From NCBI GenBank assembly GCA_024694965.1, contig JAILJC010000180.1:37031-101030 (forward strand): 64,000 nt of DNA, given 5' to 3'. The stretch is from Lachnospiraceae bacterium (lineage in GTDB: Bacteria > Bacillota > Clostridia > Lachnospirales > Lachnospiraceae). This document shows, piece by piece, positions 13,101 to 63,928 of the stretch. The number at the start of each line of letters is the position of its first letter. The first letter of the stretch is position 1. The notes beneath the pieces are model-generated. The model saw nothing but the letters and a program-made list of their open reading frames with translations. It was not told where the DNA came from and made no database searches. The translations under genes were made by a program, and so were the position numbers.

Positions 13101-13127
13101 AAAACGCCCTATAAACGGGCGTTTTTT
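13101..13127. terminator. Rho-independent terminator, possibly bidirectional
   Basis: aaaaCGCCC-tataaac-GGGCGtttttt: a GC stem flanked by an A-run and a T-run. Confidence 0.6.
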
Positions 13128-13239
13128 ATTATGCCACAAAGCCCCTGCATACTGGAAATAGAGCAGTGTTTCTGATAGAATTATGAAGGATATGCATGAT
13201 AATAGTGCAAATTATGTAACCTACAGGGGGAATAAATAG

Positions 13240-14751: not shown

Positions 14752-14777
14752 AAGACAAATCCGCAATACCGGACAGA

Positions 14778-15434
14778 TCAGAAATTCATACGTTTTCTGA
14801 TCTCATTGGATACTTTGCGCCCTTTGAATATGATTATTCCGATCAGCGACACGAAGCTGACCATGAGACAGATTGTCCATACAAGTCCCGTATCGATCCG
14901 TTTTGCCATGAGCACGGCGTAAATCACTATCACTAAAAATATGTTCCCAAGAAGATATACGAGCGCATTTTCGGTCGTATCTGTCATGGCGAAAACAAGG
15001 TTGGTCAAAAGTGCCGCACCAAGGAGTATCGGGATTATCATATAAGCGGCTATATCCATGAATCCAAAGTACCATCCCGTGAGCAGCAGAAGCAGGCATA
15101 TATGCAGCGTGCTTATGCTGACAGTGCGCGAGATTACCAAAAGCCGCTTGATATTGGCGCTTAAGTCAAATTCGAAAACGATGAGCCATAGGGCGATCAC
15201 GAGGCTGTAATGCGTTCCGTTGTTAAGCCCGAGAAGATAGTCAAGGGAAATCCCCACCGCTATCGTGGCCAGTACAAGGAAAAGCTGCAGTTTATATAAA
15301 AAGGCCTGTGCCCTCAGACGGCTGGGCGAAGGCCAGTTATCAGCGGTCGCATCCCCGGTGAGAGAGTTCTGACATAAAGGACAGCTGTCCGCATGTCCGC
15401 CTATTTTGATATTACAATTTAAACATTTCCTCAT
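14778..15434 (-). CDS. Zinc-ribbon plus polytopic membrane protein (I recall this family as DUF6320-like)
   Basis: N-terminal CxxC...CxxC (CLNCNIKIGGHADSCPLCQ) followed by about 5 TM helices. Lies 4 nt downstream of the acyltransferase gene. Confidence 0.6.
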   Translation of the reverse strand: MRKCLNCNIKIGGHADSCPLCQNSLTGDATADNWPSPSRLRAQAFLYKLQLFLVLATIAVGISLDYLLGLNNGTHYSLVIALWLIVFEFDLSANIKRLLVISRTVSISTLHICLLLLLTGWYFGFMDIAAYMIIPILLGAALLTNLVFAMTDTTENALVYLLGNIFLVIVIYAVLMAKRIDTGLVWTICLMVSFVSLIGIIIFKGRKVSNEIRKRMNF

Positions 15435-15438
15435 GTTA

Positions 15439-16701
15439 TTAACGGATCACCTCCGTGGCATACATGTACATATCGGTCCCCGATTCGTTGATCATGCTTA
15501 AAAGCCGCCTGATCACACCGGTACCGGAATAAGCCGAAGTTATGCCAAGAACAAGATCATCCCCGTAGCTGGTTGCCGTAATGAACATACTGTCTGTACT
15601 GCAGAAATCCGTGAATCCCCGGATATACGGCTGGGTCTGTGGCGGCATATCTATGGGTCCAAGGTTTGAAAGTACCGCAGTGACAGTCTTTTCCTCCCTT
15701 CCTGAGAACATGCGAACTATGGGCTGCTTTATAAACAGCGGCACCATTCTGGTAAGAAACAGCTGCTCAATGCTCTGATAGCGGTTCATCTGCTCCTTGA
15801 TAAGCTCGGGTTTGAGGCTTGACTTGAGTTTGCCGTCAAATTCAGCCGCCAGTTCTTCAAGGGTTTCCGTACCGTCAAAATAATGGGAGACATCCACATT
15901 ATTGAAGAAATTGCGCAGCGTATCGGAAGGATAGTACTTACGCAGGTTCACGGGCATTGAGATCGTGACCGGACGCCTGCGCTGCCTTATAGGCATGTCT
16001 GCCCGGATAGCCAGCATAAGAGAGGCTCCCAGGTAGCTGGTCAGGCTTACGTTAAGCTTCCTTGCGCTTTTAAGCAGCCTCGCAGAGTCAAGATGCACCT
16101 CAAAATACTGGAGCTGATTGTAGGGAAGCTTTCGGCTTAAGATCCTGTAAGCCCGTTTTTTCTTATTAAGGATCGTTTTCGGTATAGGCCCGTTGCTGTC
16201 ATCGTAAAAATGATCGTAGCTGTTCTGCGAGCGGTCATCGGATGAGGCGGAATCCGGAAGTGACACCTCATTAAGCTGCCCCGGATATCTCAATTTGAGA
16301 TAATTGAGGACAAGAAGCTTAAGTAGGATGAATGCTCCGGTCCCATCGCATATCGCATGAAACATGTCGATGTTTATCCTGTCATTATAATATGTAACAA
16401 GATAGTGGAGCACACCCTTGTAACTGCCGCCGTACAGCGAGGGGCACGGACCGAGCGTTTCGGGCATTGCGACGGGAGCAGTATCTGTCTGCTCGAGATA
16501 ATGCCAAAAAAAGCCGCGGCGTATCCTGACCTGGATCTGAGGACGGTGCTTAACCGTAATCTCAAGAGCCTGCTGTAACACATCGGCGTCTACGGGTTCG
16601 TTTAAGATGCAGCTCACCCTGATCGAACGCGGATTCCTTTTGTTGTGCGCGGCAAGGAAAACCTTTGCCACGTTGTCAAGCCTGTACCAATTTTCGTCCA
16701 T
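15439..16701 (-). CDS. Condensation / alcohol-acetyltransferase-like acyltransferase (HxxxD family)
   Basis: Catalytic-type motif HAICDGTG (HxxxDG). About 420 aa. Start uncertain: ATG at 16701 or GTG at 16710, with no strong RBS. Confidence 0.6.
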   Translation of the reverse strand: MDENWYRLDNVAKVFLAAHNKRNPRSIRVSCILNEPVDADVLQQALEITVKHRPQIQVRIRRGFFWHYLEQTDTAPVAMPETLGPCPSLYGGSYKGVLHYLVTYYNDRINIDMFHAICDGTGAFILLKLLVLNYLKLRYPGQLNEVSLPDSASSDDRSQNSYDHFYDDSNGPIPKTILNKKKRAYRILSRKLPYNQLQYFEVHLDSARLLKSARKLNVSLTSYLGASLMLAIRADMPIRQRRRPVTISMPVNLRKYYPSDTLRNFFNNVDVSHYFDGTETLEELAAEFDGKLKSSLKPELIKEQMNRYQSIEQLFLTRMVPLFIKQPIVRMFSGREEKTVTAVLSNLGPIDMPPQTQPYIRGFTDFCSTDSMFITATSYGDDLVLGITSAYSGTGVIRRLLSMINESGTDMYMYATEVIR

Positions 16702-34948: not shown

Positions 34949-34972
34949 TAAAATACGGATCACAGGTGATGT

Positions 34973-35605
34973 ATGAATAAAGGAATACTGTTTATTATTT
35001 CAGGCTTTGCCGGTTCGGGTAAGGGAACAATAGTTAAGGAACTCCTTAAACGATACGATAATTATGCTTTGTCGGTATCGGCGACGACAAGGGCTCCGCG
35101 CCCGGGTGAAGAGCACGGACGGGATTATTTTTTTGTTTCCCATGAAGAATTTGAAAAGATGATAGATTCCGGAGGGCTTCTTGAATATGCCGAGTATGTC
35201 GGGAATTATTACGGTACTCCGTGTCAGTATGTGGACGAGAAGCTTTCGGAAGGAAAGGATGTCATACTTGAGATAGAGCAGCAGGGTGCGCTCCAGATAA
35301 AACGCAAACGTCCGGATGCGCTTCTTATGTTCGTGATGCCGCCTTCCGTACAGGAAGTTTATAACAGGCTTAAGAAGAGAGGCACGGAAACAGAAGAAGT
35401 GATCTTAAAGCGCATGCGGCAGGGCGCCAAGGAAGCCGAAGTTATTGATGAATATGATTTTCTTATAATAAATGACGAACTTGATAAATGCGTTGCCGAT
35501 GTTCATAACACGATAATGTGTGCCAGAATGGCCACAATAAGAAATCGTGGATTGATAGATGAAGTAAAGGTTGGATTTAAAGAATTTTTAAAGGATAAGG
35601 ATTAG
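34973..35605 (+). CDS. gmk: Guanylate kinase
   Basis: P-loop SGFAGSGKGT and the Gmk pattern SATTRAPRPGE..G.DYFF. Confidence 0.95.
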   Translation: MNKGILFIISGFAGSGKGTIVKELLKRYDNYALSVSATTRAPRPGEEHGRDYFFVSHEEFEKMIDSGGLLEYAEYVGNYYGTPCQYVDEKLSEGKDVILEIEQQGALQIKRKRPDALLMFVMPPSVQEVYNRLKKRGTETEEVILKRMRQGAKEAEVIDEYDFLIINDELDKCVADVHNTIMCARMATIRNRGLIDEVKVGFKEFLKDKD

Positions 35606-48086: not shown

Positions 48087-48159
<73 letters not shown>

Positions 48160-48188
48160 CTGGATTTCAAGGTTTAAGTAAAAAAGTT

Positions 48189-48643: not shown

Positions 48644-48672
48644 TTGAAATACATATAAATACATGTTATAGT
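48644..48672 (+). promoter_or_regulatory. Sigma-A promoter candidate for the essC-led cluster
   Basis: TTGAAA, a 17-nt spacer, then TATAGT. Lies about 100 nt upstream of ATG 48771 in an AT-rich spacer. Confidence 0.4.
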
Positions 48673-48770: not shown

Positions 48771-51700
48771 ATGCATATAGTAATACAGGTATACAACTCT
48801 CATTCCTTAGAGGAGTTTGTATTTAAGGCTTACCCCCTGCCTGATGAACGGGCCACGGCACTTTTCAAGCTTCGCTCGGACATGTTTCGCCTGAAGGCGG
48901 ATCGTGTCATCTCTCTGATCATATCAAATAATGGGGTCGCCCTAAACGGGACTGACACCGAAGTGTATCATCAGTATCAGGATAAAAAAATCAAATGTGA
49001 AAACATCATATCAGATGATGCCGGGCTCGTTCTGGTGACAGGGGACAGGGAAGTACTTAAGATGGCGGTGTATTTTGCGTCCGATGAAGGGATGAGGTTC
49101 TACAAGGTTGGCGATAAGGATTTAATCACTGTCGGGAATTCTCCCAAAAGGACAGTCAGTCTGCTTGGCAACCAATATATCTCCGATCTGCAGTTGATGT
49201 TTAGGAAGGCTGATGCAGGCGGGATAATGAATGTAAGGTCCGAAACAGGATGCTATTTAAACGGGAGATATATCGGACCTATGAATACGGCAGAATTAAA
49301 ATACGGTGATGTGATAACAACAGGAGGCGTAAGGCTGTTATGGCTGGATGAATGTATCGGTTTTGAAGCCCTGTATATAGGACCTCCCTGTGTTGTAAGG
49401 CTTAAGGAATGTACCCGCTTACGAAAGGTAGATAGAAGCAGGGGAGATGACGGTTTCACACCCGGGGTGCGAAACCTGATAAGGACGGATAATCCTGTGA
49501 TAGAGCTGGATGCTCCGCCACCGGCACCGAATATCCGTCGCCAGCCTGCTTATCTGGCCGTCGGACCGTCGCTTACAATGGCAGTCCCGATGTGTCTGGG
49601 GTGCGGGATGTATATATATGCAGCTTCACGGGCGGGTACCGGAGGCTCAGCAATATATATGTATACGGGACTGGTAACGGCAATTGCATCCGCGATACTT
49701 GGTACGGTGTGGGCCGTTGCGAACTTAAGGCAGAGCAGGCGACAGGAGAAGGAAGATGAAAGGCAGCGGATAAGGACATATAAGGAGTACATAAACAGCT
49801 GTACAAGACGCATAGAAGATAAATACAGGTATAACAGGAATGCCCTAAAGAGGAACAGCCCCGGACTGGATGAGATTTTAAAAGGGAACCTGAACAGCTT
49901 TGTACTTAACAGGCGTTTAGACGATGAAGATCTTTACAGGTACAGGCTGGGCACGGGTAAGTGCAGGTTTGAAGTGGATATAAGGGTTCCGAAGGAAAAG
50001 TACATGCCGGTTCCTGATGAGCTTGCGTCGCTCCCGCTCAAACTCAAGCAAAAATACTTAAAGATAAGTGATGTACCCATATGTACGGATATTAAAGCCG
50101 ACAGGATCCAGGGTTTTATAGGAAGGAACGGACAGGGGCTTGAACAGCTGTTTCTTAACATTGCCCTTCAGATAGCGGCGACAACCGGCCCCGAGCTTAT
50201 AAGGATGGTATTTCTGTTTGGGGATAATGTGATACCTGAGGGTGCGGTAAGGATAATGAGGTGGCTTCCCCAGGCACAGGGAGATGACGGACACTATGTA
50301 TGCACGGATCGTGACAGGAACGATGAACTGCTGTGTTTTCTAGAAGGGATCATTAAGAATCATGAAAACATCGTACACAGATGGATAGTATTTACGGATG
50401 ATCATAAAAGGCTGCCGCCTTCATTGCTAAGCAGGGAGGATCTAAGCCTACTGGTATTTGCAAAAGAGTACAGGTCGCTGCCCGGTGAGTGCAGATGCAT
50501 TATACAGAATGATGCTTCATACAGAGGCATGCTGATGCCGGGAAGGGAAGAATTAAGAAGGGATATATGTTTTGATCACATTTCGCTTAAGGAAGCCGAA
50601 GGATATATAAGACGCATTGCCGGAGTATGCAGGTATGTAAAATCGGCAGTAAAACCGATACCCGCACTTGTGACTCTTCCGATGCTTTATGATACAGACA
50701 ATATAAGGCATAATGATATAGCGGCTTTCTGGCGGGATAACAACACAATAAACAGCATTAGGGCGCCTATCGGTATGGCAGGGGATCAAAGAGTGATATC
50801 CCTCGATCTGCATGAAAAGGCGCATGGACCTCACGGCCTGGTGGCCGGTATGACAGGGAGCGGAAAGAGTGAACTGCTGCAGACATTGATACTGTCTTTG
50901 GCGTTACGGTATCCGCCATGGGAGGTCGGATTTTTTCTTATCGATTACAAAGGAGGCGGCATGGCTTCAATGTTTGAAGGGCTGCCCCATCTTATAGGAA
51001 GCATATCAAATCTGTCCGGCAATATCACGGACAGGGCACTGCTGTCGATACGCAGTGAAAACGAACGCAGGCAGAGGCTGTTCCTTGATGCGGGTGTCAA
51101 CTCGATCAGGGACTACGGCAGGAAATTTCTTGACGGCACTGTAGCCATGCCGCTTCCCCACATTTTGATAATCATAGACGAGTTTGCCGAGCTTAAGCGC
51201 GAGCAGCCGGAATTTATGAAGGAACTCATAAGCGTTGCTCAGGTGGGAAGGAGCCTTGGAGTTCATCTGATCCTTGCAACTCAGAAACCCGCAGGCACGG
51301 TTGACGATAACATTTTTTCAAATTCCAGGTTCAGGATATGTTTAAGAGTTCAGGATAAGCAGGACAGCAATGACATGCTGCACAGACCTGATGCGGCTTA
51401 TATAAAAAACCCGGGAAGGGCATATTTCCAGGTGGGAAACGATGAACTGTTTGAGGAGTTCCAGTCGGGATACACTATGGAACCCTGTATGGTTGAAAGT
51501 GATACGGGAACATTATGTCTGCTTGACAGAAACGGACGCAGGATAAAGGTATCGGAAAACCACATTGAAAATGAAGAAGCGGATACACATTTTTCTATGT
51601 CCATGAAGGTTATCAGACGTTGTTATGAAGAAAGTGACCATGCCACGATACAGAAGCTCTGGCTTCCCGAGCTTGACACAAGGCTGGTGCTTAACGAAAC

Positions 51701-53171
51701 AGCTATCCGCATATCCGATGATGAGCCCGGAGTGATCATCGGAAGATATGACGATCCCGAAAACAGAGAGCAGGGCGATTACAGGATAGATCTTTTAAGG
51801 ACCGGGCACATGGCGGTATGCGGCAGTGCACAAAGCGGAAAGAGTACGTTACTGCAAACGCTGATAATGTCGTTGCTAAGTCACACGGTTAAGATAGACC
51901 CTGCCATCTATATAGTCGATTACAGCAACGGTATTCTTTCATGCTTTAGGGACAGTGTGCTCGTGGGTGCATACATAAATGAAGATACTCAAGACAGGCT
52001 TGGTAACCTGTTCTGTTTGATAAGGGAGATCATTGACAGGCGCCGCACACAGTGGGACGGTATAAGCTTTTCAAACCGCAGGGATCAGTACGCGATATCC
52101 GATAAGGCCATCATACTGGTGATCGACAATTACGGAGCGTTCAGGGAGAAAACGGATTGCATTTATGATGATGCGATGCAGGAATTTATAAAGTACGGCG
52201 AAACCTATGGTGTATTTGTCATACTTACCGGAAGCGCAATAGGAAGTTCGGATATACCGGTCCGACTTTTTGAAAACATCAGGACGGGAATATGCTTAAG
52301 GTTAAATGACAGGTACCAGTACAGTGAATGTCTGCGTCAGATACATTTACCTGTTATGCCGGCCGAAGCAGGCGGAAGGGGACTTGCATATATATCAGGG
52401 CGGATACTTGAGTTTCAGACATATCTTATACTTGCGGAAAATGACAGGCAGCGGAATGAACTTATAAAGAAGGAAGTCGGCTATATCAATGTGAATGATC
52501 GGACTGTGCCGGCAAAGAGAGTTCCGTTCATACCAAAGGAACCTTCGGTTGAGGATCTTGATGGGGCGATTAAAGACATAATCCTTAATAATGGGCAGCT
52601 TCCCATCGGGTATGATGCCGTAAGTGCAAGGCCGTTTATAATAGATCTTTCCGATACACCATGCCTAATGTTTGCCGGTGCATGCAAAAGCGGAAAGAGC
52701 AATGCCTTGAGGGTGATACGTCATTACGCAGAAAGAGCAGGGATAAAGGTAAAAGATACGGGCAGTATAAGGAGCATATACGAAGCATTCAGGGAGGAAC
52801 CCGATGTGCTCGTTATCTGTGACGGAATCGAATCGGTAATAGATGATTTCTACAAAAACGACAGGGATGAGGCAATTGAAAAGGAAATGACGGAGCTTAT
52901 CGGTAAAAAGGGACATTGTATGGTATTTACCGTTTCATCATCGGGACATGCAGGTGTGGCAGGGCGAAGGATTTATGAACAGATACGTGCCGTATGCATG
53001 GGAATATACCTGGGCGGAAGCATTGATAAGCAGAATGTGTTTGACTTTTCATATCTTCCTTACAGTTTGCAGTGCCGCGCGGGTGAAGCGGGTATGGGAA
53101 CGGTGTTAAGGCGTGGCAGGGCAGCATCTTGCAATGACGTAGTGATCCCGTATGCGGAGGAAGTTAAGTAA
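48771..53171 (+). CDS. essC: Type VII secretion FtsK/SpoIIIE-family ATPase, EssC/YukB-like
   Basis: 1466 aa. N-terminal FHA-like region of about 200 aa, two TM helices (about aa 260-320), then three P-loop modules: GMTGSGKSELLQT with Walker B IIIDEFAELK; GSAQSGKSTLLQT; GACKSGKSNALRV. Confidence 0.9.
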   Translation: MHIVIQVYNSHSLEEFVFKAYPLPDERATALFKLRSDMFRLKADRVISLIISNNGVALNGTDTEVYHQYQDKKIKCENIISDDAGLVLVTGDREVLKMAVYFASDEGMRFYKVGDKDLITVGNSPKRTVSLLGNQYISDLQLMFRKADAGGIMNVRSETGCYLNGRYIGPMNTAELKYGDVITTGGVRLLWLDECIGFEALYIGPPCVVRLKECTRLRKVDRSRGDDGFTPGVRNLIRTDNPVIELDAPPPAPNIRRQPAYLAVGPSLTMAVPMCLGCGMYIYAASRAGTGGSAIYMYTGLVTAIASAILGTVWAVANLRQSRRQEKEDERQRIRTYKEYINSCTRRIEDKYRYNRNALKRNSPGLDEILKGNLNSFVLNRRLDDEDLYRYRLGTGKCRFEVDIRVPKEKYMPVPDELASLPLKLKQKYLKISDVPICTDIKADRIQGFIGRNGQGLEQLFLNIALQIAATTGPELIRMVFLFGDNVIPEGAVRIMRWLPQAQGDDGHYVCTDRDRNDELLCFLEGIIKNHENIVHRWIVFTDDHKRLPPSLLSREDLSLLVFAKEYRSLPGECRCIIQNDASYRGMLMPGREELRRDICFDHISLKEAEGYIRRIAGVCRYVKSAVKPIPALVTLPMLYDTDNIRHNDIAAFWRDNNTINSIRAPIGMAGDQRVISLDLHEKAHGPHGLVAGMTGSGKSELLQTLILSLALRYPPWEVGFFLIDYKGGGMASMFEGLPHLIGSISNLSGNITDRALLSIRSENERRQRLFLDAGVNSIRDYGRKFLDGTVAMPLPHILIIIDEFAELKREQPEFMKELISVAQVGRSLGVHLILATQKPAGTVDDNIFSNSRFRICLRVQDKQDSNDMLHRPDAAYIKNPGRAYFQVGNDELFEEFQSGYTMEPCMVESDTGTLCLLDRNGRRIKVSENHIENEEADTHFSMSMKVIRRCYEESDHATIQKLWLPELDTRLVLNETAIRISDDEPGVIIGRYDDPENREQGDYRIDLLRTGHMAVCGSAQSGKSTLLQTLIMSLLSHTVKIDPAIYIVDYSNGILSCFRDSVLVGAYINEDTQDRLGNLFCLIREIIDRRRTQWDGISFSNRRDQYAISDKAIILVIDNYGAFREKTDCIYDDAMQEFIKYGETYGVFVILTGSAIGSSDIPVRLFENIRTGICLRLNDRYQYSECLRQIHLPVMPAEAGGRGLAYISGRILEFQTYLILAENDRQRNELIKKEVGYINVNDRTVPAKRVPFIPKEPSVEDLDGAIKDIILNNGQLPIGYDAVSARPFIIDLSDTPCLMFAGACKSGKSNALRVIRHYAERAGIKVKDTGSIRSIYEAFREEPDVLVICDGIESVIDDFYKNDRDEAIEKEMTELIGKKGHCMVFTVSSSGHAGVAGRRIYEQIRAVCMGIYLGGSIDKQNVFDFSYLPYSLQCRAGEAGMGTVLRRGRAASCNDVVIPYAEEVK

Positions 53172-53174
53172 AGC

Positions 53175-53468
53175 ATGATAAGGTTTGAGGTTTATGCTCT
53201 TTCGTGGGCAAAGACTTATGAGATCGAGGCCGGTGAAAATACAAAAGTAAGTGAACTATTATGTTTCATCTCGGGTTTGTGCGGTGAAACTGAAAGAGGT
53301 ATTCTTTTAAGCCTGTCCGGGAAGGGCATGCTGGATGAAAGCATAAGCCTTAAGGAGCAAGGGGTATTATCCGGAGATAAGCTTATGTATATATCGGCAG
53401 GGTATAGGAAAGGAGGTAAAGGTGAAGCCGTTAAGCGCGGTATATGTGCGGATGAAGGGGCTGCTTGA
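53175..53468 (+). CDS. Small ubiquitin-like (EsaB/YukD-like) protein
   Basis: About 80-aa core ending ...LKEQGVLSGDKLMYI, which resembles the EsaB/YukD beta-grasp C-terminus. Lies immediately after essC. Called from context plus weak similarity. Confidence 0.55.
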   Translation: MIRFEVYALSWAKTYEIEAGENTKVSELLCFISGLCGETERGILLSLSGKGMLDESISLKEQGVLSGDKLMYISAGYRKGGKGEAVKRGICADEGAA

Positions 53469-53721
53469 TGAACTGGGGGTTGTGTCGGAAAACCTGTACG
53501 GTAAAATTGCGGGACTTGAAGAAGCCATTTCAGGTCTGGGGATATCATGGGAGGGAACCGCTTATGAACAATACAGTATAAGGTTAAAGGATGATCTTAA
53601 TTTTATGAAAGCCAAGGCTTTGAACCTGAAGGTCATGTATCTTATGCTTAGCACCCTGCTTGCGGGGTATCAGAATACTGAAATTAAAGTAGGCAGTATT
53701 ATAGGAGGATTAAAAAAATGA
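53422..53721 (+). CDS. WXG100-family protein 1
   Basis: 99 aa, central W-x-G (ISWEGTAYEQY), helix-turn-helix length. GTG start 5 nt after AGGAGG; the alternative is ATG 53452. Confidence 0.7.
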   Translation: MKPLSAVYVRMKGLLDELGVVSENLYGKIAGLEEAISGLGISWEGTAYEQYSIRLKDDLNFMKAKALNLKVMYLMLSTLLAGYQNTEIKVGSIIGGLKK

Positions 53722-54017
53722 GTATTAAGGATGAGATCGATATCCAGTTTGGACGGGCAATGCAGCAGGCGGAAGAACTTGAGGAACTCTCGGGCATGAT
53801 CTGCAATATAGGGAGTGAAAAGTTAGATGGAGCACTGACCCTGCTGACCAAGTCTTGGAAGGGAGAAAACGCAGGAGAATTTACCGGCAAGGTAAATGTT
53901 ATAAGAAACAGGATGTACGGATGTGCGGAGGCGCTTAAGGAAACGTCGAAGCTTATAAAGCTGACGGCGGGGCGGATTTATGATGCCGAGATGGCGGCAA
54001 TAAGGATGATAAGTTAG
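53718..54017 (+). CDS. WXG100-family protein 2
   Basis: 99 aa, central W-x-G (KSWKGENAGEF), good RBS (TAGGAGGA). Confidence 0.72.
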   Translation: MSIKDEIDIQFGRAMQQAEELEELSGMICNIGSEKLDGALTLLTKSWKGENAGEFTGKVNVIRNRMYGCAEALKETSKLIKLTAGRIYDAEMAAIRMIS

Positions 54018-54037
54018 GAAGAAAAGGAGGATCAGAT

Positions 54038-54337
54038 ATGTCATTTTTTCAGGTTACAGCAGCGGAGCTAAGGAAAAAGGCCGACCAGTTAAAAGGTCTT
54101 AACTCAAGGTTTAAGGGATCGGTTGATTCAATGCAGGCGACAGAACAGTCGTTAAAATCAATGTGGGAGGGTGAAGCAAACGAGACATTCCATAAAACGT
54201 TTGTAAATGATAAGGGAAAAATGGACCAGTTTCACGCGGCAATAGACAGGTTTATAGAGGCACTTCTGATAATTGCGGCAAAGTATGAGGAAGCAGAGAA
54301 AAAGAACACTCAGACCGCAGCGGTAAGAAGCTGTTAA
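54038..54337 (+). CDS. WXG100-family protein 3 (EsxA-like)
   Basis: 99 aa. N-terminal FQVTAAELRKKA, W-x-G (SMWEGEANETF), C-terminal YEEAEKKN. RBS AAAGGAGGA. Confidence 0.85.
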   Translation: MSFFQVTAAELRKKADQLKGLNSRFKGSVDSMQATEQSLKSMWEGEANETFHKTFVNDKGKMDQFHAAIDRFIEALLIIAAKYEEAEKKNTQTAAVRSC

Positions 54338-54367
54338 TGCGGACATGAATAAACGGAAAGGAGAAGG

Positions 54368-54685
54368 ATGATGACAGGTTTGTTAAAGGTTACGCCGGAA
54401 AAACTGATCGCGGCGTCAAATGAATTCAGTACGGTTGGAAAAACAGTAAGGTCGCTTACACAGGAAATGAATGATATAGTTTCGTCTCTGAAATCGGTGT
54501 GGATGGGAGAAGCAGCCACCGGATACGGATCGAAGTTTGCCGAACTTTCAGATGATATAGAAAAGATAAACAGAATGATACAGGAACATGTGACAGATCT
54601 TAACAATATGGCAAGAGAGTACCAGACGGCGGAGGATACAAATACACAGCAGGCTGCAGCTCTCAAAACGGATATCGTTGCATAA
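54368..54685 (+). CDS. WXG100-family protein 4 (EsxA-like)
   Basis: 105 aa. N-terminal LKVTPEKLIAASNEF, W-x-G (SVWMGEAATGY), C-terminal YQTAEDTN. RBS AAAGGAGAAGG. Confidence 0.85.
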   Translation: MMTGLLKVTPEKLIAASNEFSTVGKTVRSLTQEMNDIVSSLKSVWMGEAATGYGSKFAELSDDIEKINRMIQEHVTDLNNMAREYQTAEDTNTQQAAALKTDIVA

Positions 54686-54696
54686 GAGGTAAAACT

Positions 54697-56043
54697 ATGG
54701 AAGTAGGATACAAGAATCTTATCCTTATAGACAATTCAATGTCTGTCGGTGATGCCAATTTCATGCTGTGCAGGGAAACGGCAAAATATATATGCGAAAA
54801 CGGAGGAACGCAGGATACTTTCAGGCTTGCCACTTTCGGTGAGGATATAGAATACTTAACCGATTATACATCCGACAATGTGCTCCTTACTGACAGCATA
54901 GATGATCTTCAGCTTACGGACAGAGACACGTTTATAACGGATAATCTGGTGAAGATTTTGCGTGAGTGGAAGGAGCAGGACGTTGCATGCAGGAATATAA
55001 TCCTGTTTACCGACGGTGAGGAATCGGAATCCGTGCTGCATGCGGATGAGGAATTGTATTATCTGTTAAGGGATTCGGAATATCCCGTTTATGTAGTGCA
55101 GAGTATTGAAAAAATAGGGATACCGGCAACAAAAAATCTTTCGGCTATAGCAACGATAAGCGGAGGCAGGCTGCTTCTTACAGAGTTTGAAGGCTCCGAT
55201 GCATCAAGTGAGATAACTTTGGGAAGTGCTATACTTTCCGCGATCGATATTTCGCGTGAAGCAAAGGAGGAAGAAATCCATGCGGCGGAAATCACCGATA
55301 GTAAAGAGGAAATCCATGAAGAGGCAGAAGCAGCAGAAGAGGCGGATGAACCGGTTTCGTCCGCGGAAAGCCTTATGATATACGGTGATAAAGGTATGGG
55401 TACAGATATGCACAGTGAAACGGTACCGGTAAACACTCCCGAAACGCATGCTTCTGTTAATACGCCCATCATAAAACACACTACGGAGCAACACTCCGGC
55501 ATCAGTCTGGGTGTTATATTCCCGATCCTGGGATTTGTGTTTGCACTTGCGTTTGCGATCATCATACGTCTTATCACATCAAGGAACAATGAAGACTCCC
55601 TAGGGAACAGCAGGTTAAAGGAGACGATCGAGGAGGAACTTAAGCGAGAAGCAATGATAGCGCTTGATGCCGAAGAATATGACTGCATGACAGTGAAACT
55701 TAATGATCCGGGAACGAATACAAGGCTGCTTTCCCAAAACGCAGGCAGCCATGATATAGTTCTGGAGGACTGTAATGATCCTACAAGGTTATTCAGGGCT
55801 TCAAGTGACAGTGCCCTGATCGTAGGGAGGTCGGCAGGCTTGTGCGATGTTGCGATAGACTATGATGATTCTATATCCGGAAGGCATTGCGAACTTTCGG
55901 TAAAGGATGGAAGCTGGTATGTCAGGGACCTTAATTCATCCAACGGTACCAGGGTGAACGGGCAGAAGGTATTCCAGGAATTGATGCTTAAGTGCGGAGA
56001 TATATTAATGCTCGGACAGTCATCCCTTCAGGTGAGGATATGA
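54697..56043 (+). CDS. vWA - single TM - FHA membrane protein
   Basis: N-terminal vWA with an intact MIDAS DxSxS (LIDNSMS) and ILFTDGEE. Acidic linker. TM helix ISLGVIFPILGFVFALAFAIIIRLI. C-terminal FHA (VGRSAG...SISGRHCEL...VRDLNSSNGTRVNGQKV). Confidence 0.85.
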   Translation: MEVGYKNLILIDNSMSVGDANFMLCRETAKYICENGGTQDTFRLATFGEDIEYLTDYTSDNVLLTDSIDDLQLTDRDTFITDNLVKILREWKEQDVACRNIILFTDGEESESVLHADEELYYLLRDSEYPVYVVQSIEKIGIPATKNLSAIATISGGRLLLTEFEGSDASSEITLGSAILSAIDISREAKEEEIHAAEITDSKEEIHEEAEAAEEADEPVSSAESLMIYGDKGMGTDMHSETVPVNTPETHASVNTPIIKHTTEQHSGISLGVIFPILGFVFALAFAIIIRLITSRNNEDSLGNSRLKETIEEELKREAMIALDAEEYDCMTVKLNDPGTNTRLLSQNAGSHDIVLEDCNDPTRLFRASSDSALIVGRSAGLCDVAIDYDDSISGRHCELSVKDGSWYVRDLNSSNGTRVNGQKVFQELMLKCGDILMLGQSSLQVRI

Positions 56044-57356
56044 GAGAATTAAGTGAGAAGGAGCTGCTGCTTCTATCCAATTATCTGTACATTGATAAAT
56101 GTACGGAATACGGGACAATAAATGAAATGCTTGACAGCTGCCGCGGCGCAGACGGAAGTATAGATGAAGGAAAGGTGGCTGCACTTGGTATAGGCGGATG
56201 TATGAGTGCCCAGGAGGGCTGCCGCATACTTAATGAAATGGATGCATGCGGAGCAGGACTCTGCAGCCTGAGTGTTGCAAGAAGTATAGATGCAGGTGGG
56301 ATACGCGCTATATGTTTTGAGTCACGCGATGGAGATGCTACGGTTGTATTCCGCGGGACGGGCGGAGATTACGAGCCATGGGTTGACAATGTACGGGGTG
56401 AATATCAAAGCGATACCAGAATGCAAAAGCTCGCGGATGATTTTATAAGATATGACTGCGGCGTATATGACAGTATCACCGTGTCCGGACACAGTAAGGG
56501 AGGTAATCTGGCCCAGTATGTTACGGTTCTTAACAATGACAGGGTTGACAGATGCATATCCTTTGACGGGCAGGGTTTCGGAAAGGGCTTTTTTGATTCT
56601 TACGCTAAGGACGTCGGACCGGCGAGCGCAAAGATAAAATCCATATGCGCACATAATGATTATGTAAACCTGCTTCTGGGAGCTATAGCCTGCGAGATAG
56701 TGTTTGTAAAAAACCGTCACAGCGATCCGGTGGGATGCCACAGTTCATTTGCGCTTTTTGACAGCTGTGAATTTGACAAAAGCGGAAACATAGTAAATCT
56801 GACAGAACAGAGTAAGCTTATGAAGGGAGCGAAATCCCTGACTTCATATCTTACGGGATACATGGATTCGCTTCCGGGAGAGGGCGGCATGCTATTAAGT
56901 GAATTGCTCGCAGCAAATGTTGCCGCAGTATTCAGCTCGGAACTTGGCGAAGAATATGAAAATGAAAGGAAATACAAAGCAGGACTTGACGTTAAGCGCT
57001 ATCTTGCTTCTTCGGCCGGATTTGACATAAAGGATCCGCTGCGCGATGTGAGCATAGTTACCGATGAATTATATATTGATCCGGCGGGGCTTAAGGAAGC
57101 GGCAAGCCTAATCTTAAATACAGGCAGGGAAATGGATGCTGCGGCACTTAAGCTTGCAGAGCTGCGACATAAAATTGATTATAAGGCTGCCGCTAAGCTT
57201 GCGGTTGACATAATACTTAGGAAGGCTGAAAACAAAATGACTGAATATGCGGCTATGACTGTATCGCGCGGTGAAGCATTAAGTGAGATAAGCCGGTTGT
57301 ATGAAGAGAGGGAAAAAGAGATCCTAAGCTGCATAGGATCGATCACGTTTGCCTAA
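56040..57356 (+). CDS. DUF2974 / Mbeg1-like alpha/beta hydrolase with a C-terminal WXG/LXG-like helical extension (candidate T7 substrate)
   Basis: ATG 56040 overlaps the previous stop (ATGA) and follows GGTGAGGA. Nucleophile elbow SGHSKGGNLAQY, and FDGQGF. The last roughly 97 aa (57063-57353) are helical and begin LYIDPAGLKEAAS, like the N-termini of the adjacent Esx proteins. Confidence 0.8.
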   Translation: MRELSEKELLLLSNYLYIDKCTEYGTINEMLDSCRGADGSIDEGKVAALGIGGCMSAQEGCRILNEMDACGAGLCSLSVARSIDAGGIRAICFESRDGDATVVFRGTGGDYEPWVDNVRGEYQSDTRMQKLADDFIRYDCGVYDSITVSGHSKGGNLAQYVTVLNNDRVDRCISFDGQGFGKGFFDSYAKDVGPASAKIKSICAHNDYVNLLLGAIACEIVFVKNRHSDPVGCHSSFALFDSCEFDKSGNIVNLTEQSKLMKGAKSLTSYLTGYMDSLPGEGGMLLSELLAANVAAVFSSELGEEYENERKYKAGLDVKRYLASSAGFDIKDPLRDVSIVTDELYIDPAGLKEAASLILNTGREMDAAALKLAELRHKIDYKAAAKLAVDIILRKAENKMTEYAAMTVSRGEALSEISRLYEEREKEILSCIGSITFA

Positions 57357-57886
57357 AGTGTATCGTGATCGTAACCGTGACTGTCAAGGAAGCGTTCAAA
57401 CATATTATCCCAGGCTTCATTAAGAGTGCGGTCTATGGAAAAGATATTAAGTGAAACGGCGGTGGTGCATGTAAGTGCACCGCCGTCATATTTTATATTT
57501 ACGTTTAGTGAGCTTATCTGTTCCGGAAGAACCGGGGAGTCTACCGAGTTAAGGAACTTTATAACGTTTTCCTGAGCAAGAGCGAGAGTGATCCTGAAAG
57601 AAAGAGGAGGCTTTTTTCCGCGGATATATGAATAGCAGTAGCCTTTGACAGATTCCCATCGGATCAGATTTTCACTGAAAATACGCCCGCTTTCTTTGGC
57701 TTTTTCCCTAAGCAGGTCCAGCTCATCTGCGGTATAGAAATCCTTATTGATATGACCGTCAATAGTGTAGGCATTGGAAGTGGAAATGATCGCTTCACTT
57801 AAAAGGAAGCTGTCAAAAACCGTTTCTTTTTCCGACAGAAGACCGGTCATGAAGATTGCGGCGTTGTTTATCTTAAAAAGCTTCAT
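57353..57886 (-). CDS. Hypothetical cytoplasmic protein (177 aa)
   Basis: Clean ORF and last gene of the minus-strand argG operon. Its stop overlaps the stop of the hydrolase gene. No recognised motif. Confidence 0.55.
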   Translation of the reverse strand: MKLFKINNAAIFMTGLLSEKETVFDSFLLSEAIISTSNAYTIDGHINKDFYTADELDLLREKAKESGRIFSENLIRWESVKGYCYSYIRGKKPPLSFRITLALAQENVIKFLNSVDSPVLPEQISSLNVNIKYDGGALTCTTAVSLNIFSIDRTLNEAWDNMFERFLDSHGYDHDTL

Positions 57887-57896: not shown

Positions 57897-58205
57897 TTAC
57901 ATTATCTTAAAATCAAGAGGTGTAAAGAACAAAAGTATGAGGACAAGTGCTATCTGCAGTCCGAGTATGAGCGGCATACCGATGTAAAATGCCGCTTTGT
58001 GGGTTTTATGCCTGAATAGATACATACCAAGAAGGCAGCCGATGCTGCCCCCGAATAAAGCGATGGAAAATAAAGTCGCTTCCGGTGTGCGCCACGACTG
58101 CCGTTTGGCCTTCTGCTTGTCTATAAAGAAATATGCAAGTCCGAGCAGATTAACACAGATAATATACAGACCTATGATCATCCGGACATTACCAAGATCA
58201 ATCAT
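57897..58205 (-). CDS. DUF1294-family small membrane protein
   Basis: Pattern KRQSWRTPEATLF..ALFGGSIGCLLGMYLFRHKTHK with 3 TM helices. Lies 17 nt downstream of argG. Confidence 0.8.
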   Translation of the reverse strand: MIDLGNVRMIIGLYIICVNLLGLAYFFIDKQKAKRQSWRTPEATLFSIALFGGSIGCLLGMYLFRHKTHKAAFYIGMPLILGLQIALVLILLFFTPLDFKIM

Positions 58206-60100: not shown

Positions 60101-63100
60101 TCAACGGCGTGTCAGGTAAAATGAACCGTTGCTTTTGATGATATTATAGCTGTCCTCATCATCAATGCTGAGTGCAAAGCCGTCCGTTGAAGCGGCCGGT
60201 GCCTTTAGCAGCTGGAATGCGGGCTTGGCCTGATTGAAAACGGGATCTGATGATTCAAACTGACCGGACCTTAAGAAGTTGATGCAGGTACCGTTGTCCA
60301 TAGTCAGAAGAGCAAGCTTTAAGCCGCCTTTGTCCGTAGCCTGAGTTATTTCACCGTTTATTGTGATCTTTGAAGCAACGCTTTTTACGAGGCCGTTGCT
60401 TCTTTTTATCTTGCAGGTGCCTCCAAGCTCGGCCGCCAGTTCATCCTGATGTACATTGCCGACATTGATCTTACCCTTGCAATAAAGACCCACATCTGAG
60501 ATCAATAAGTTTCCGATCCCGTTTATATCACCGTTGACTTCAAATTTATATCTGAAATCACTATCGGCAATGTGAGTTCCGGATGATAAAACCTCAAGCG
60601 TCGATGCTTTGGACGCTCCGTTTCCTTTAATAGATCCGATCCTGTATGTGCTGAAATCGACATTCTTCATAGTAAGATGCGAAGCGTTGGTTTTAAGGTT
60701 GATCCTGGTTTTTTTATCTGCCACTCCTTTAGTATTAATATAATCGGCAAGGATGACTCCATCAAGTGTAAGCGGGGAATTGAGCGCGATCGAGTTTTTG
60801 ACTTTAAGCACCGCTTTTTCATCGGTTTTTGAAGCTATGGTTATACCCGCTGCCTGTTTAGGAGTAACAAGGTTTGTTTTAAAGTCGGAAGCCGTATCTG
60901 AAGAAGGGTCTATGAGGATTGAATATTCTGTCTCATTAGAACACAGTAAAGCAATTTCGCCAAGAGCATTATTGACGGTATCGAAGCTGCCGAGAACCGT
61001 GAGATCTTCAGAATCGTTTTTAATGCAAAGGGTAACGGGGATGTCATCACCGGATGAGATGCCGAAGGTGTCTTTTGCCTTTTTGACAAATGCGCTGACA
61101 GTGATCCTGTCATCTTCGACAGCCGTTCTGGCGATCACAAAACAGCCGGCGGGTACCTTGGCGGCTGTTATGATCTTACTTTTCTTACTTGCCGCGGAAG
61201 TATAATCACCTTTTAAGAACTTGGGGGTGATACTTAAGGCAAAGCGATTTACGATGACCTCTCTTCCTGAACCGGAAACAGCCTTCACATTCGGACCACT
61301 GCATTTCATAGAGCCGCTTATTTTGCATTTGCCTTTTTTGTCACCGTAGGAAATAGAATTATACTCATTAAGAGAAGCTACATTTTTTAATGTAACATTT
61401 GCTGCGGCATTTATAGAGGCGGATTTAAGGCTTAAGAGGTTTGACACACTGATATTGCCGTTTGCGGATGTAATATCCGCATTGTCTGCCGTTATATTTC
61501 CTGCGTTTATGTTTCCGGCAACCGTCATGGGCATGCGCTCTTTTGTTCCCATAAGGATCAGGTGCGACCCGGCTTTACCGGAAATGGAGGCAAAGCTTCC
61601 TTTTGATGTTGTAAAGGGAGAGTCGGTAAACTCCACTGTATTGCCGCCGATCGTCAGCTTGGCGCCCGAAGAGTCAGATACCAGATTAATGTTCTGGAAA
61701 GAAGTATCGGTTGAGGGAGAAAGATCCCCGGTAAATCCGAAACTGTATCTGTCGGCGCCGGCACTTGCAAGGGTGATTTTTGCCGCTGTTTTCGGAAATA
61801 CAAGCTTTTCAGCCATATCAACGCTTTCAATAAGCTCAATCCTGTAGGAAGCGTTTTTGTCCTTTACAGTATTGTCAATGTAATTTACTGCTTCTGACCA
61901 TTTAATAAATGTGCTCACAGGTTCTTCGCCGTTGTAAAGGGCAAATGCGGGTTTTGCAAAGATGAGGCTGCTATCCACCTCGCAAAGATCCAGTGAGGTA
62001 TCAGCAGGATTCTTATTCGCTCCTGTAGAGACAATATCAAATACATCTTTAAACTGGGCATTTGCCAGTGTGCCGGAAGAGTCGGTCACTCTTTTTATAG
62101 TACCCGAGTTTACAGCTACAACATCGCCTGATTCAAAGTATCCTTTTCCCGAAGTTGCAAATTCAATTTTCGGAATGGGGGATTTAATGTCGTCGCTGTT
62201 TGCCCCAAATGCTGTAGTACCCTTTATCAAAAGCCTGCCGTTTCGCAGCAGACGGCCGCTGTTATCATAGGACTTGGAAATGATCACGGGATGATTTTTA
62301 CCTGTTTTATTAAGCAGATAGAAACTGCTGTTTTCAAGTGTGACCGTATTGTTGAGGTAGAGAGAATAATCAGCCTGTGCGTACGGGTCCATATTGTCAC
62401 CGTAATAAACGGGCAGCTTTTTAAATGTAGTATTGTCCAGGATCATGTCCTGGCAGGAGTAGACATTAAATAGAAGGTGATCCAAATCAGTTACACCGGT
62501 AAAGACTACATTTTTTACCTCTTTTATATAGTCTAATGACAGGTTACCGGAATATGTAAAAACTTTATCACTGTATCCTACGCAAACGGTGCCGTTTGAT
62601 ATTTTGGATGCAGATAAGAAGCAGATGTATTTACACTTTAAATTATGGCCGTTTAAGTCGATGCTCACCCTCTCGGGATGCGATAAACTGATGTCATCGG
62701 CATCTCCGCCGAGGATACAGTCGCTGTTAAACTTTATTGTCCAGTCGGCATCTGATACGAGGCTCTTTGAGTCTATGTATTGGCATGCAGCAACAAGACT
62801 GTCAAATTCGTCTTCGTTACCATCTGAGCCGATGACAGATATCTTACCTGCTTTAAGATCAGTTCCGCCTTTGACCTTGTCAAAATAATTTTTGATAAAG
62901 CGCGGACTCTTATACATATCCTGTTCTTCGGAACGTTTGAAACTTTTGTTGTCCGAAAGATACCTTCCGGTGGAGCAGTCTATGAAGTACCAGTAACCGT
63001 CTCCTCCGTCAACAATGTTGTATGCATGAGCAGCGGCATCCGTGCCCATGATGGCTTTGCTTGCAACTCCGAGTTCTCGCATAAGCCTTGAAAACAGATG

Positions 63101-63928
63101 TGCATAAGCTTCGCAGGTGCCGTTACCTTTAATGAGGGCATGATAGGCGGTATGGTAGAGGGGATAGGTGCGGTCCGATCCGCCGCTGCCGTTCACGGTT
63201 CCTTTTACATGCTTTCTTACATAATCATAAACCGCTTTGATCTTTTCGGTGTTTGTTCCGTTTTTAACGCCGGCAAAGGTCGTGTTCATAAGCTCACTTA
63301 CCTTTGCGTCCATTTCGTCCTCCTCGGAGCGGGTTGTTATCACCGGAAGATATATTTCATACACTTCGTAGGTAGTTCCATCGTAATCATAATAATCTAT
63401 GCAGCTTGGATACTCATATTCAAACACACGTTGTATCCTGTTTCGAAACTGGTGGAACATATAGTCGCCTTCGTCCGGCTTCATTCCCGGACGCTCGGCT
63501 TCAAAATCATAAACATCCATTAGATCGATGCAGCCGCTGATCAGGCCCTTTTTCACATAGATCCTGTCATAAACATATCCGTCAGTGTCGTAATTCATGC
63601 GATTGGTTACGTCGGGATAAAGCGCCATATTGTTGACCCTTCTTCTTACGATATCGCGCACGGCTTCATATGCTTCGTATTGAGTATTGCAGTAATACTG
63701 CGAAGCGGCCTGTACCCCGGCATCGTTAAGCCCGGTATCATCTAAGTGAAAACTGTCATTTATGTCCGCCGGAACAAAAGCTGTATCGGGTAACGTTATT
63801 ATATCCGGTTCCGATGAGATATCGCTGATCTCGGTGAGAACATCGATACTCTCGGCGGCAGCACATGTGAATGTGGAAATGAGAATCATGGAAACGGTTA
63901 GAGTGAGAGTCAGAAATCTTTTAAGCAT
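60101..63928 (-). CDS. Large secreted protein with an N-terminal transglutaminase-like cysteine protease core and a long beta-rich C-terminal region
   Basis: Signal peptide MLKRFLTLTLTVSMILISTFTCAAA. Transglutaminase-core triad pattern: GNGTCEAYAHLF (Cys), AAHAYNIV (His), WYFIDCS (Asp). The remaining roughly 900 aa are Gly/Ser/Asn/Thr-rich. Confidence 0.7.
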   Translation of the reverse strand: MLKRFLTLTLTVSMILISTFTCAAAESIDVLTEISDISSEPDIITLPDTAFVPADINDSFHLDDTGLNDAGVQAASQYYCNTQYEAYEAVRDIVRRRVNNMALYPDVTNRMNYDTDGYVYDRIYVKKGLISGCIDLMDVYDFEAERPGMKPDEGDYMFHQFRNRIQRVFEYEYPSCIDYYDYDGTTYEVYEIYLPVITTRSEEDEMDAKVSELMNTTFAGVKNGTNTEKIKAVYDYVRKHVKGTVNGSGGSDRTYPLYHTAYHALIKGNGTCEAYAHLFSRLMRELGVASKAIMGTDAAAHAYNIVDGGDGYWYFIDCSTGRYLSDNKSFKRSEEQDMYKSPRFIKNYFDKVKGGTDLKAGKISVIGSDGNEDEFDSLVAACQYIDSKSLVSDADWTIKFNSDCILGGDADDISLSHPERVSIDLNGHNLKCKYICFLSASKISNGTVCVGYSDKVFTYSGNLSLDYIKEVKNVVFTGVTDLDHLLFNVYSCQDMILDNTTFKKLPVYYGDNMDPYAQADYSLYLNNTVTLENSSFYLLNKTGKNHPVIISKSYDNSGRLLRNGRLLIKGTTAFGANSDDIKSPIPKIEFATSGKGYFESGDVVAVNSGTIKRVTDSSGTLANAQFKDVFDIVSTGANKNPADTSLDLCEVDSSLIFAKPAFALYNGEEPVSTFIKWSEAVNYIDNTVKDKNASYRIELIESVDMAEKLVFPKTAAKITLASAGADRYSFGFTGDLSPSTDTSFQNINLVSDSSGAKLTIGGNTVEFTDSPFTTSKGSFASISGKAGSHLILMGTKERMPMTVAGNINAGNITADNADITSANGNISVSNLLSLKSASINAAANVTLKNVASLNEYNSISYGDKKGKCKISGSMKCSGPNVKAVSGSGREVIVNRFALSITPKFLKGDYTSAASKKSKIITAAKVPAGCFVIARTAVEDDRITVSAFVKKAKDTFGISSGDDIPVTLCIKNDSEDLTVLGSFDTVNNALGEIALLCSNETEYSILIDPSSDTASDFKTNLVTPKQAAGITIASKTDEKAVLKVKNSIALNSPLTLDGVILADYINTKGVADKKTRINLKTNASHLTMKNVDFSTYRIGSIKGNGASKASTLEVLSSGTHIADSDFRYKFEVNGDINGIGNLLISDVGLYCKGKINVGNVHQDELAAELGGTCKIKRSNGLVKSVASKITINGEITQATDKGGLKLALLTMDNGTCINFLRSGQFESSDPVFNQAKPAFQLLKAPAASTDGFALSIDDEDSYNIIKSNGSFYLTRR

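Follow-up and report, generated by a model that had tools for sequence, protein, structure and literature searches.

A Mbeg1-like hydrolase with a WXG100-like C-terminal hairpin as a candidate reverse-orientation substrate of a Lachnospiraceae type VII secretion system

Introduction

The window analysed here, a stretch of 64,000 nucleotides from Lachnospiraceae bacterium (GenBank assembly GCA_024694965.1, contig JAILJC010000180.1, positions 37,031 to 101,030 of the forward strand), carries at positions 56040-57356 a gene for a lipase-like hydrolase that closes a cluster of type VII secretion system (T7SS) genes. The question raised by this locus is whether the hydrolase is itself exported by the T7SS and, if so, by what part of the protein it would be recognised. 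Only two families of T7SS substrates with the 'reverse' arrangement, Tsl1 and Tsl2, are known, and both are phospholipases found in staphylococci and other Bacillota with a T7SSb (PMC13560087; August 2026). An earlier sequence-only reading of the window had proposed that the hydrolase is a reverse-architecture substrate resembling TslA of Staphylococcus aureus. Our analysis supports that proposal, on the strength of the fold and profile of the tail, its C-terminal motif, the synteny in 20 loci, the use of the same domain at the N-termini of other proteins and the order of the genes in the cassette. We consider the hydrolase to be probably a T7SS-exported esterase or lipase of reverse orientation, composed of an N-terminal cargo and a C-terminal WXG100-like targeting module.

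The hydrolase head

The gene and the parts of its product are as follows; residues are given as amino acids (aa) of the product, and pLDDT is the predicted local distance difference test score of the AlphaFold2 model.

56040-57356, + strand: hydrolase gene with a 438-aa product, an open reading frame without internal stops and the last gene of the T7SS operon
56040-57029, + strand: hydrolase core, aa 1-330, with an alpha/beta fold over aa 1-250 followed by helices over aa 259-325
56487-56501, + strand: nucleophile elbow G150-H-S152-K-G154, invariant in 72/72 homologues
56658-56660 and 56739-56741, + strand: D207 and H234, the putative triad partners
57015-57080, + strand: flexible linker, aa 326-347, with pLDDT below 50 at aa 336-339 and 'LYIDP' at its end
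57081-57347, + strand: helical hairpin, aa 348-436, made of helix 348-378, turn 379-382 (I-D-Y-K) and helix 383-436
57279-57335, + strand: C-terminal motif L414-x2-I417-x3-Y421-x3-E425-x2-I428-x3-I432, a putative T7SS recognition motif

The ATG at 56040 is preceded by the ribosome-binding site GGTGAGGA, and homologues aligned with the protein begin at the same methionine. The start codon overlaps, as ATGA, the stop codon of the upstream gene for a protein with a VWA domain, a transmembrane (TM) segment and an FHA domain, an arrangement by which the two genes are, as judged from the sequence, translationally coupled. An exact-sequence look-up returned no identical protein on record, a protein search of a plasmid collection with the hydrolase gave zero matches, and the DNA sequencing runs that match the gene are bovine or gut metagenomes only.

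The sequence-only reading had recognised a DUF2974 core with a G-H-S-K-G elbow, and both are confirmed. Residues 90-279 match the Pfam family PF11187 (Mbeg1-like/DUF2974) with 52.4 bits against a cut-off of 21.1, the homologues scoring 46-71 bits. In an alignment of 72 homologues of 34-89% identity, the elbow G150-H-S-K-G154 and the residues D176, D207 and H234 are invariant in 72/72, and S152, D207 and H234 likely form the catalytic triad. The full-length AlphaFold2 model, built with the alignment of the 72 homologues (mean pLDDT 87.5, predicted template modelling score 0.70), locates the elbow between strand 146-151 and helix 153-164, which is the canonical strand-helix order. When the whole model was compared with the PDB by Foldseek, the top match was a lipase effector of the E. 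cloacae type VI secretion system (T6SS) (9cys, E-value 3e-5) and Aspergillus feruloyl esterase A (E-value 4e-4) was also among the best, while the full protein, searched against the PDB as a single sequence, gave no match below an E-value of 0.4. Pfam Lipase_3 matches in relatives are sub-threshold, and the homologues have weak precomputed matches to PF26363 ('Phospholipase-like'). The head looks active, in that its sequence predicts a catalytically competent serine esterase or lipase of the Mbeg1-like (DUF2974) family. Neither a signal peptide nor a TM segment was found in the protein (maximum Kyte-Doolittle value 1.39 over 19-residue windows), the earlier reading having likewise seen no signal peptide, so that export, if any, requires another route.

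The window encodes at 476-1585 a further Mbeg1-like protein, a canonical member of 369 aa (272.6 bits) without a WXG-like tail or T7SS context. This paralog, which had been said to end in a different C-terminus without the tail motif, does lack it: it is just 30% identical to the hydrolase over 117 aa and gives no match with the tail profile.

The C-terminal tail

The tail had been described as helical and as 'Esx/LXG-like', with a start that mirrors the motif of Esx 3 and Esx 4, the two canonical WXG100 proteins encoded upstream. The two helices predicted by AlphaFold2 persist when the tail is modelled alone (pLDDT 89.4, hairpin retained), and in these models the tail is an independent hairpin, neither disordered nor part of the hydrolase fold. 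In profile-profile comparison the segment LYIDPAGLKEAAS (aa 344-356) is aligned with the 'Q/K-V-T-x-x-x-L' start of Esx 3 and 4. The hhalign alignment of the tail with Esx 3/4 runs end to end over 87 columns (E-value 1.4e-5, probability 80%), starting at L344/Y345 (LYIDPAGL), as had been claimed, and ending with LYEEREKE opposite KYEEAEKK; the match to the divergent Esx-like proteins 1 and 2 is weaker (probability 56%). A Foldseek search with the tail-only model returned about 27 top PDB matches that are all WXG100, ESAT-6 or PE-type T7SS hairpins. EsxA of G. thermodenitrificans (3zbh) leads this group, with a TM-score of 0.79-0.90 and a root-mean-square deviation of 1.2-1.6 A, and the others include B. 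anthracis EsxB, GBS1074, S. aureus EsxA, PE25, and the T. curvata and M. tuberculosis Esx pairs. In PDB searches with a tail profile, designed coiled coils crowd out part of the results; among natural sequences the best match is T. curvata EsxA (4lws, E-value 1.3e-3), again end to end.

Across the 72 homologues the tail has a median identity of 24% as against 48% for the core, and it is the C-terminal motif that is retained: position 417 is hydrophobic in 72/72, Y421 is Tyr or Phe in 66/72, E425 is Glu or Asp in 71/72, L414 is nearly fixed, and I428 and I432 are conserved in 66/72 and 57/72, respectively. The tail thus contains the C-terminal YxxxE, i.e. HxxxD/ExxhxxxH, pattern of WXG100 proteins. 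YxxxD/E and HxxxD/ExxhxxxH are reportedly the C-terminal signature of WXG100-type T7SS substrates, a definition said to go back to Daleke in 2012 and Poulsen in 2014. At the turn, position 381 is Tyr or another aromatic residue in 42/72.

Of the earlier description, the Esx-like half holds, the tail being Esx-sized (~90 aa) and WXG100-like, and the LXG-like half does not. The tail is half of the ~200 aa of LXG (PF04740), stands at the C-terminus, has no LxG and gives no Pfam match. Among 41 tails of the family, Pfam and NCBIfam found nothing consistent, 1/41 matching WXG100 with an E-value of 0.026. By predicted fold and by profile the tail is WXG100-like, outside the PF06013 threshold and not LXG-like, and the sequence and the models support a separate helical hairpin that is a remote relative of WXG100.

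The operon and its conservation

The hydrolase gene ends an eight-gene cluster on one strand (48771-57356), the other members of which are the following.

48771-53171, + strand: EssC-type FtsK/SpoIIIE ATPase, 1466 aa, the first gene of the operon (TIGR03928)
53175-53468, + strand: YukD/EsaB-like small ubiquitin-fold protein, with a weak Pfam YukD match (E-value 0.051)
53422-53721, + strand: Esx-like 1, divergent WXG-like, with W43-x-G and Y-x3-E
53718-54017, + strand: Esx-like 2, divergent WXG-like, with W43-x-G and I-x3-E
54038-54337 and 54368-54685, + strand: Esx 3 and Esx 4, canonical WXG100 proteins (Pfam WXG100, 47.5 and 52 bits)
54697-56043, + strand: VWA-TM-FHA protein, 448 aa (Pfam VWA and FHA), with a single TM segment at about aa 271-293

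The ATPase scores 758 bits with the NCBIfam model TIGR03928 (T7_EssCb_Firm), for which the cut-off is 778, and the YukD matches are weak in homologous loci too. Esx 3 and Esx 4 score 53.1 and 55.5 bits with TIGR03930, above the cut-off of 44.85, and hhalign relates Esx-like 1/2 to Esx 3/4 with a probability of 96%. All four Esx-like proteins have W43-x-G; the C-terminal Y-x3-E is present in three of them and is I-x3-E in Esx-like 2. The VWA-TM-FHA protein has its hydropathy peak (2.77) at aa 272. FHA domains are cytoplasmic, and its 270-aa VWA part should therefore be extracellular; no export signal is visible in the protein. No gene for EssA, EssB or EsaA was found within the eight-gene cassette, of which the VWA-TM-FHA protein is the sole other membrane protein.

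Homologue look-ups, together with a scan in which one genome represented each species, gave 20 distinct Lachnospiraceae loci whose hydrolases are 32-61% identical to that of the window. T7SS genes lie directly upstream of the hydrolase in 20/20, the hydrolase gene coming after YukD and four WXG-like genes, and EssC is present wherever the contig extends far enough. The ends of the cassette are constant across the loci and the flanking regions vary. Eighteen of these loci have a VWA/FHA gene 5' of the hydrolase gene, adjacent to it in 15 and separated from it by a lipoprotein gene in 3; in the remaining two (L016 and L025) it is missing and the hydrolase is kept. In four loci taken from the most to the least similar, identity to the window falls from 61 through 47 and 41 to 35% for the hydrolase, from 52 through 49 and 39 to 31% for EssC, and from 61 through 52 and 40 to 34% for the VWA/FHA protein, so the divergence of the hydrolase parallels that of EssC and VWA/FHA.

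An unrelated T7SS locus (L088, 9664-13507) encodes an FHA membrane protein, a Mbeg1-like hydrolase with a Sec signal (347 aa) and a VWA membrane protein. The hydrolase gene there is ATGA-coupled to the FHA gene, its product is distant and without a WXG tail, and the VWA domain comes after a Zn-ribbon and a TM segment. The recurrence of this neighbourhood suggests that hydrolase, VWA and FHA form a recurring module.

Lipoprotein genes and other fusions of the head

In L004, L013 and L015 the gene between the VWA/FHA and hydrolase genes encodes a lipoprotein-like protein of ~238 aa, the operon being otherwise identical in order (L004 9292-10008; L013 287-1024; L015 2103-2855; two further such genes lie in L042 at 6730-7464 and 9008-9712). 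The lipoprotein call was read by eye from an N-terminal hydrophobic segment ending in Cys. The family is DUF5037-like and ~235 aa long, its L013 member scoring 29.9 bits, and a profile of it finds 1-6 copies directly 5' of related hydrolase genes in ~25 further loci, with six copies in L036. L033, L042 and L048 have a lipoprotein gene, then the gene of a hydrolase that ends in a helical C-terminus, and then two WXG genes, in some cases with a 78-aa gene before these two; the lipoprotein-hydrolase unit is at times tandemly repeated. From these neighbourhoods the DUF5037-like lipoproteins are a candidate immunity family. In the window itself, a weak match of the lipoprotein profile at 34970-35602 was rejected, as it falls in a kinase-like open reading frame with a P-loop, apparently a guanylate kinase.

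The distant T7SS-linked hydrolases of this group (L033 3719-5266; L042 7469-9004 and 9716-11260), and likewise those at L048 7266-8777 and 9716-11386 and at L034 10001-11512, have one or two hydrophobic, TM-like helices after the enzyme. Beyond these helices lies a different helical C-terminal domain, 'NPYFKVDTxKL...', and the sequences suggest a membrane-inserting variant.

The same head is also fused to C-terminal modules of other kinds, to RTX/HemolysinCabind repeats in L036 (9971-15991), L044 (9962-14395), L049 (9704-11848) and L039 (9944-12034), and to a DUF4280 domain in L027 (9785-11431), and the heads so fused are still preceded by a lipoprotein gene. RTX repeats are C-terminal export signals of type I secretion systems, and DUF4280 is PAAR-like. 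The export association of the head's C-terminal partners is indirect evidence, and the strongest of its kind, for the WXG-like tail being an export module too, and the head appears, from these fusions, to be a cargo-first module common to several export routes.

Use of the tail domain in other proteins

A search of 1.84 billion representative proteins with the profile of the 41 tails gave 668 matching proteins at E<=1e-3. In the top 150 of them, the domain is N-terminal in 68, where it occupies residues ~2-93 of proteins of 200-540 aa, C-terminal in 38, and makes up a short protein of ~100 aa in 39. One and the same hairpin therefore occurs both at the N-terminus, as is canonical for T7SS substrates, and, as in the present protein, in the reverse position, and the profile picks out hundreds of clostridial proteins of either orientation as candidate T7SS substrates.

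Those C-terminal cases that were checked or already listed are mostly Mbeg1-like hydrolases, together with the Gly-rich proteins P0147 and P0179. Among N-terminal cases, P0135 and P0140 contain HExxH and have weak matches to metallopeptidase families, and the P0135 locus contains four WXG100 genes and a DUF4176 gene. P0147 (L089 8001-9140) and P0179 are Gly/Ala-rich proteins of ~375 aa with a C-terminal WXG100 domain, which in P0147 passes the Pfam WXG100 threshold with 27.6 bits; the P0147 gene is adjoined by DUF4176 and DUF3592 genes. Both proteins are possible non-lipase 'reverse' T7SS substrates.

In L025, a T7SS locus of Oliverpabstia, the hydrolase gene is directly followed by a gene (11174-16057) for a 1,628-aa RHS-repeat protein, the N-terminus of which matches the tail profile. 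A lipoprotein gene and the gene for a 137-aa tail-like protein lie upstream of the hydrolase gene there.

Proposed export and alternative explanations

In the mechanism that we propose, the hairpin and one or two of the operon's small WXG-like proteins would pair in the cytoplasm to give a helical bundle, the most plausible partners being the divergent Esx-like 1 and 2. The bundle would display Y421-x3-E425, the EssC ATPase would recognise this motif, and the complex would be exported. Outside the cell the hydrolase may cleave ester bonds of membrane or envelope lipids, and in the sister lineages the DUF5037-like surface lipoprotein encoded just upstream would neutralise the enzyme. The presence of this lipoprotein in sister lineages points to an interbacterial lipase toxin. 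For the wider family, the gene order makes an antibacterial lipase neutralised by the lipoprotein likely; for the protein of the window the same role is plausible, with the balance leaning somewhat against it, and a fixed operon member that has no adjacent immunity gene is less securely called a 'toxin' than a 'substrate'.

Several observations count against an exported lipase toxin and have to be set beside those that favour it. The hydrolase gene is inherited vertically like that of a core component and is not polymorphic, which fits a toxin poorly, and no DUF5037-like lipoprotein gene or other immunity gene was found in the 64-kb window. No RNA sequencing run contains the hydrolase gene. 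The nearest solved folds of the head include feruloyl esterases beside lipases. As to the tail, WxG and LxG are both absent from its turn, Pfam gives it no match at E<=0.1 with WXG100 and LXG included, the hhalign probabilities are just the 80% and 56% given above, and its Foldseek E-values are weak (best 4.6e-3), the last being expected for a simple hairpin.

One explanation that would account for the fixed position of the gene is that the hydrolase is an accessory enzyme of this T7SS variant, exported or docked via its tail, which remodels the cell's own envelope or works with the VWA-TM-FHA protein in the assembly of the machine or the passage of substrates. EssH, the cell-wall hydrolase of the S. 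aureus T7SSb, and MycP of the mycobacterial ESX systems are its logical parallels. In 20 loci the cassette ends with the hydrolase as a fixed member, the hydrolase diverges at the rate of EssC and VWA/FHA, its gene is translationally coupled to that of the VWA-TM-FHA protein, and immunity genes are lacking in the window and in most of the Lachnospiraceae loci. The Sec-signal Mbeg1-like hydrolase of L088, encoded between FHA and VWA membrane proteins, fits the same explanation, and PMC13059805 provides a precedent for a dedicated hydrolase recruited by a T7SSb. However, L016 and L025 keep the hydrolase without a VWA/FHA gene, and the lipoprotein gene directly 5' of the hydrolase in L004, L013 and L015, found in 1-6 copies in distant relatives, is a toxin-immunity signature, and polymorphic toxins typically show fusions such as those of the head with the export modules RTX and DUF4280. 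We regard the accessory enzyme, the main alternative, as unlikely, while giving it real weight.

A role inside the cell has far less in its favour. In this explanation the protein would be a non-secreted cytoplasmic enzyme whose tail serves oligomerisation or docking to EssC or Esx proteins, acting as a regulator, a chaperone-like factor or a lipid-modifying enzyme of the inner face of the membrane. The lack of a signal peptide would agree with it, canonical Mbeg1-like proteins such as that at 476-1585 are without a recognised export signal (judged by Pfam only), and helical hairpins are generic interaction modules. Nevertheless, the tail has a C-terminal motif specific to WXG100 proteins and aligns with them in full-length register, its domain stands at the N-terminus of toxin-like and RHS proteins encoded in T7SS loci, the other fusions of the head are all export-associated, and relatives pair with surface lipoproteins, all of which makes a cytoplasmic enzyme very improbable. 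The possibility that an unrelated coiled-coil tail has come to lie beside T7SS genes by accident could appeal to the designed coiled coils in the PDB that the tail profiles also match and to the lack of anything consistent in Pfam. It is effectively refuted by the synteny in 20 loci with differing flanks, as well as by the motif-specific conservation and by structural matches that are specific to T7SS proteins, and we give it hardly any credence.

Comparison with known secretion systems

The closest described counterpart of the proposed exported esterase is TslA (Tsl1), the reverse phospholipase toxin of the S. aureus T7SSb (Garrett et al. 2023, PMC10730906). Both proteins begin with a lipase-type alpha/beta hydrolase with GxSxG and a Ser-Asp-His triad and have no Sec signal. 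Both end in a helical C-terminal domain, which is the targeting domain in TslA and the putative one here; the reported Phyre2 template of that of TslA is 3ZBH (PMC10730906), the top Foldseek match of the tail here. TslA is encoded with small helical WXG/Lap-like genes, as the hydrolase is with the four WXG-like genes of its operon, and the order of lipoprotein, hydrolase, WXG and WXG in relatives mirrors tilA-tslA-tlaA1-tlaA2 (PMC10730906). In contrast to TslA, the present hydrolase is assigned by Pfam to the Mbeg1-like/DUF2974 family, which would set it apart from Tsl1 and Tsl2. Its tail is ~90 aa long, whereas the Tsl domain is longer and LXG-like (~150 aa in TslM), and it lacks a turn motif of the G-x-L or L-x-G kind. 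Candidate immunity proteins, seen in relatives and absent from the window, are DUF5037-like instead of DUF576, the gene lies in a conserved T7SS core operon instead of a variable island, and the host cassette shows no EssA, EssB or EsaA. The earlier statement that this would be a TslA-like substrate built on an 'unrelated hydrolase family' went too far, as the head has lipase-type structural matches and sub-threshold Lipase_3 matches, and TslA is itself reported to model on a Yarrowia lipase.

TslM (Tsl2), which has one WXG100 partner, TlaM, of 99 aa (Higginson et al. 2026, PMC13560087), is likewise a reverse lipase, and short members of ~400 aa without a middle linker exist in Bacillus and Listeria. 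Tsl2 differs from the present family in its immunity proteins (DUF1433 membrane proteins), in its LXG-like tail of ~150 aa with an LFG motif, and in its distribution, which is in staphylococci and other T7SSb-carrying Bacillota (PMC13560087). With WXG100 proteins (PF06013) the tail shares its size, the helix-turn-helix, the 'h-x-V/I-D/T-x-x-x-L' start, the C-terminal motif, the profile and the fold; it differs from them in being fused C-terminally to a 340-aa enzyme, in having I-D-Y-K in place of W-x-G, and in being sub-threshold in Pfam.

The hydrolase family or its fold is already known as an interbacterial effector domain. DUF2974 is among the X-Tfes effectors of the Xanthomonas-type type IV secretion system (PMC6536674), a DUF2974-RHS protein belongs to the T6SS of B. 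fragilis (PMC11854122), and the T6SS effector 9cys is the top match of the head's model. These effectors differ from the present protein in their Gram-negative delivery and their other targeting domains. Our literature search found no paper linking DUF2974 to T7SS.

The system that would carry the hydrolase shares with the T7SS subtypes a-j described by Garrett, Higginson & Palmer (2024, PMC11217815) an EssC-type ATPase with an N-terminal extension, a YukD-like protein and WXG100 proteins. Proteins with FHA or vWA domains occur in some of these subtypes (TscE has vWA; TseJ and TsfJ have FHA), and 'reverse' lipases were noted at T7SSe and T7SSg loci; no described subtype, however, conserves a VWA-TM-FHA fusion together with a hydrolase, and PMC11217815 contains no mention of Lachnospiraceae. 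No description of the cassette was found in the literature search, and to judge from its gene content it could represent a compact T7SS subtype that is new to the literature.

Taken at its widest, the interpretation would be that of a third family of reverse T7SS substrates, in which a Mbeg1-like head with a minimal, WXG100-sized tail is a fixed component of a compact, as yet undescribed T7SS subtype in Lachnospiraceae of the gut and rumen. The head would be a polymorphic toxin module carried on at least three C-terminal modules (WXG hairpin, RTX and DUF4280), usually guarded by a lipoprotein, and the tail would also mark non-lipase reverse substrates. We judge this whole combination to have close to an even chance of being right, or slightly less. 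If true, the third family would come from abundant and genetically little-studied bacteria, reverse targeting would extend to a T7SS variant without EssA, EssB and EsaA in its cassette, and a single Esx-like hairpin would define the minimal C-terminal T7SS targeting unit, with a simple mutable motif in Y421 and E425. The reuse of the head with RTX repeats suggests why lipase-like heads come first, and the DUF5037-like lipoproteins would be nominated as an immunity family.

Flanking genes

The surroundings of the operon in the window are as follows.

48087-48160: tRNA-Thr, which with a terminator lies upstream of the promoter-like site
48644-48672, + strand: promoter-like site, TTGAAA, 17 nucleotides, TG-TATAGT, ~100 nucleotides 5' of essC, by consensus matches only
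57353-57886, - strand: DUF5721 gene, convergent, its stop region overlapping the stop codon of the hydrolase gene
57897-58205, - strand: DUF1294 gene, convergent on the hydrolase gene

The DUF5721 gene was considered as an immunity gene and rejected, being on the opposite strand and its product having no signal peptide or TM segment. In several diverged genomes it lies no more than 10 kb from the cassette, and its distance of 7-10 kb in L004 and L005 makes its adjacency in the window look like ancestral synteny. Farther downstream, the minus strand carries at 60101-63928 an open reading frame of 1,275 aa, the N-terminus of which resembles a signal peptide.

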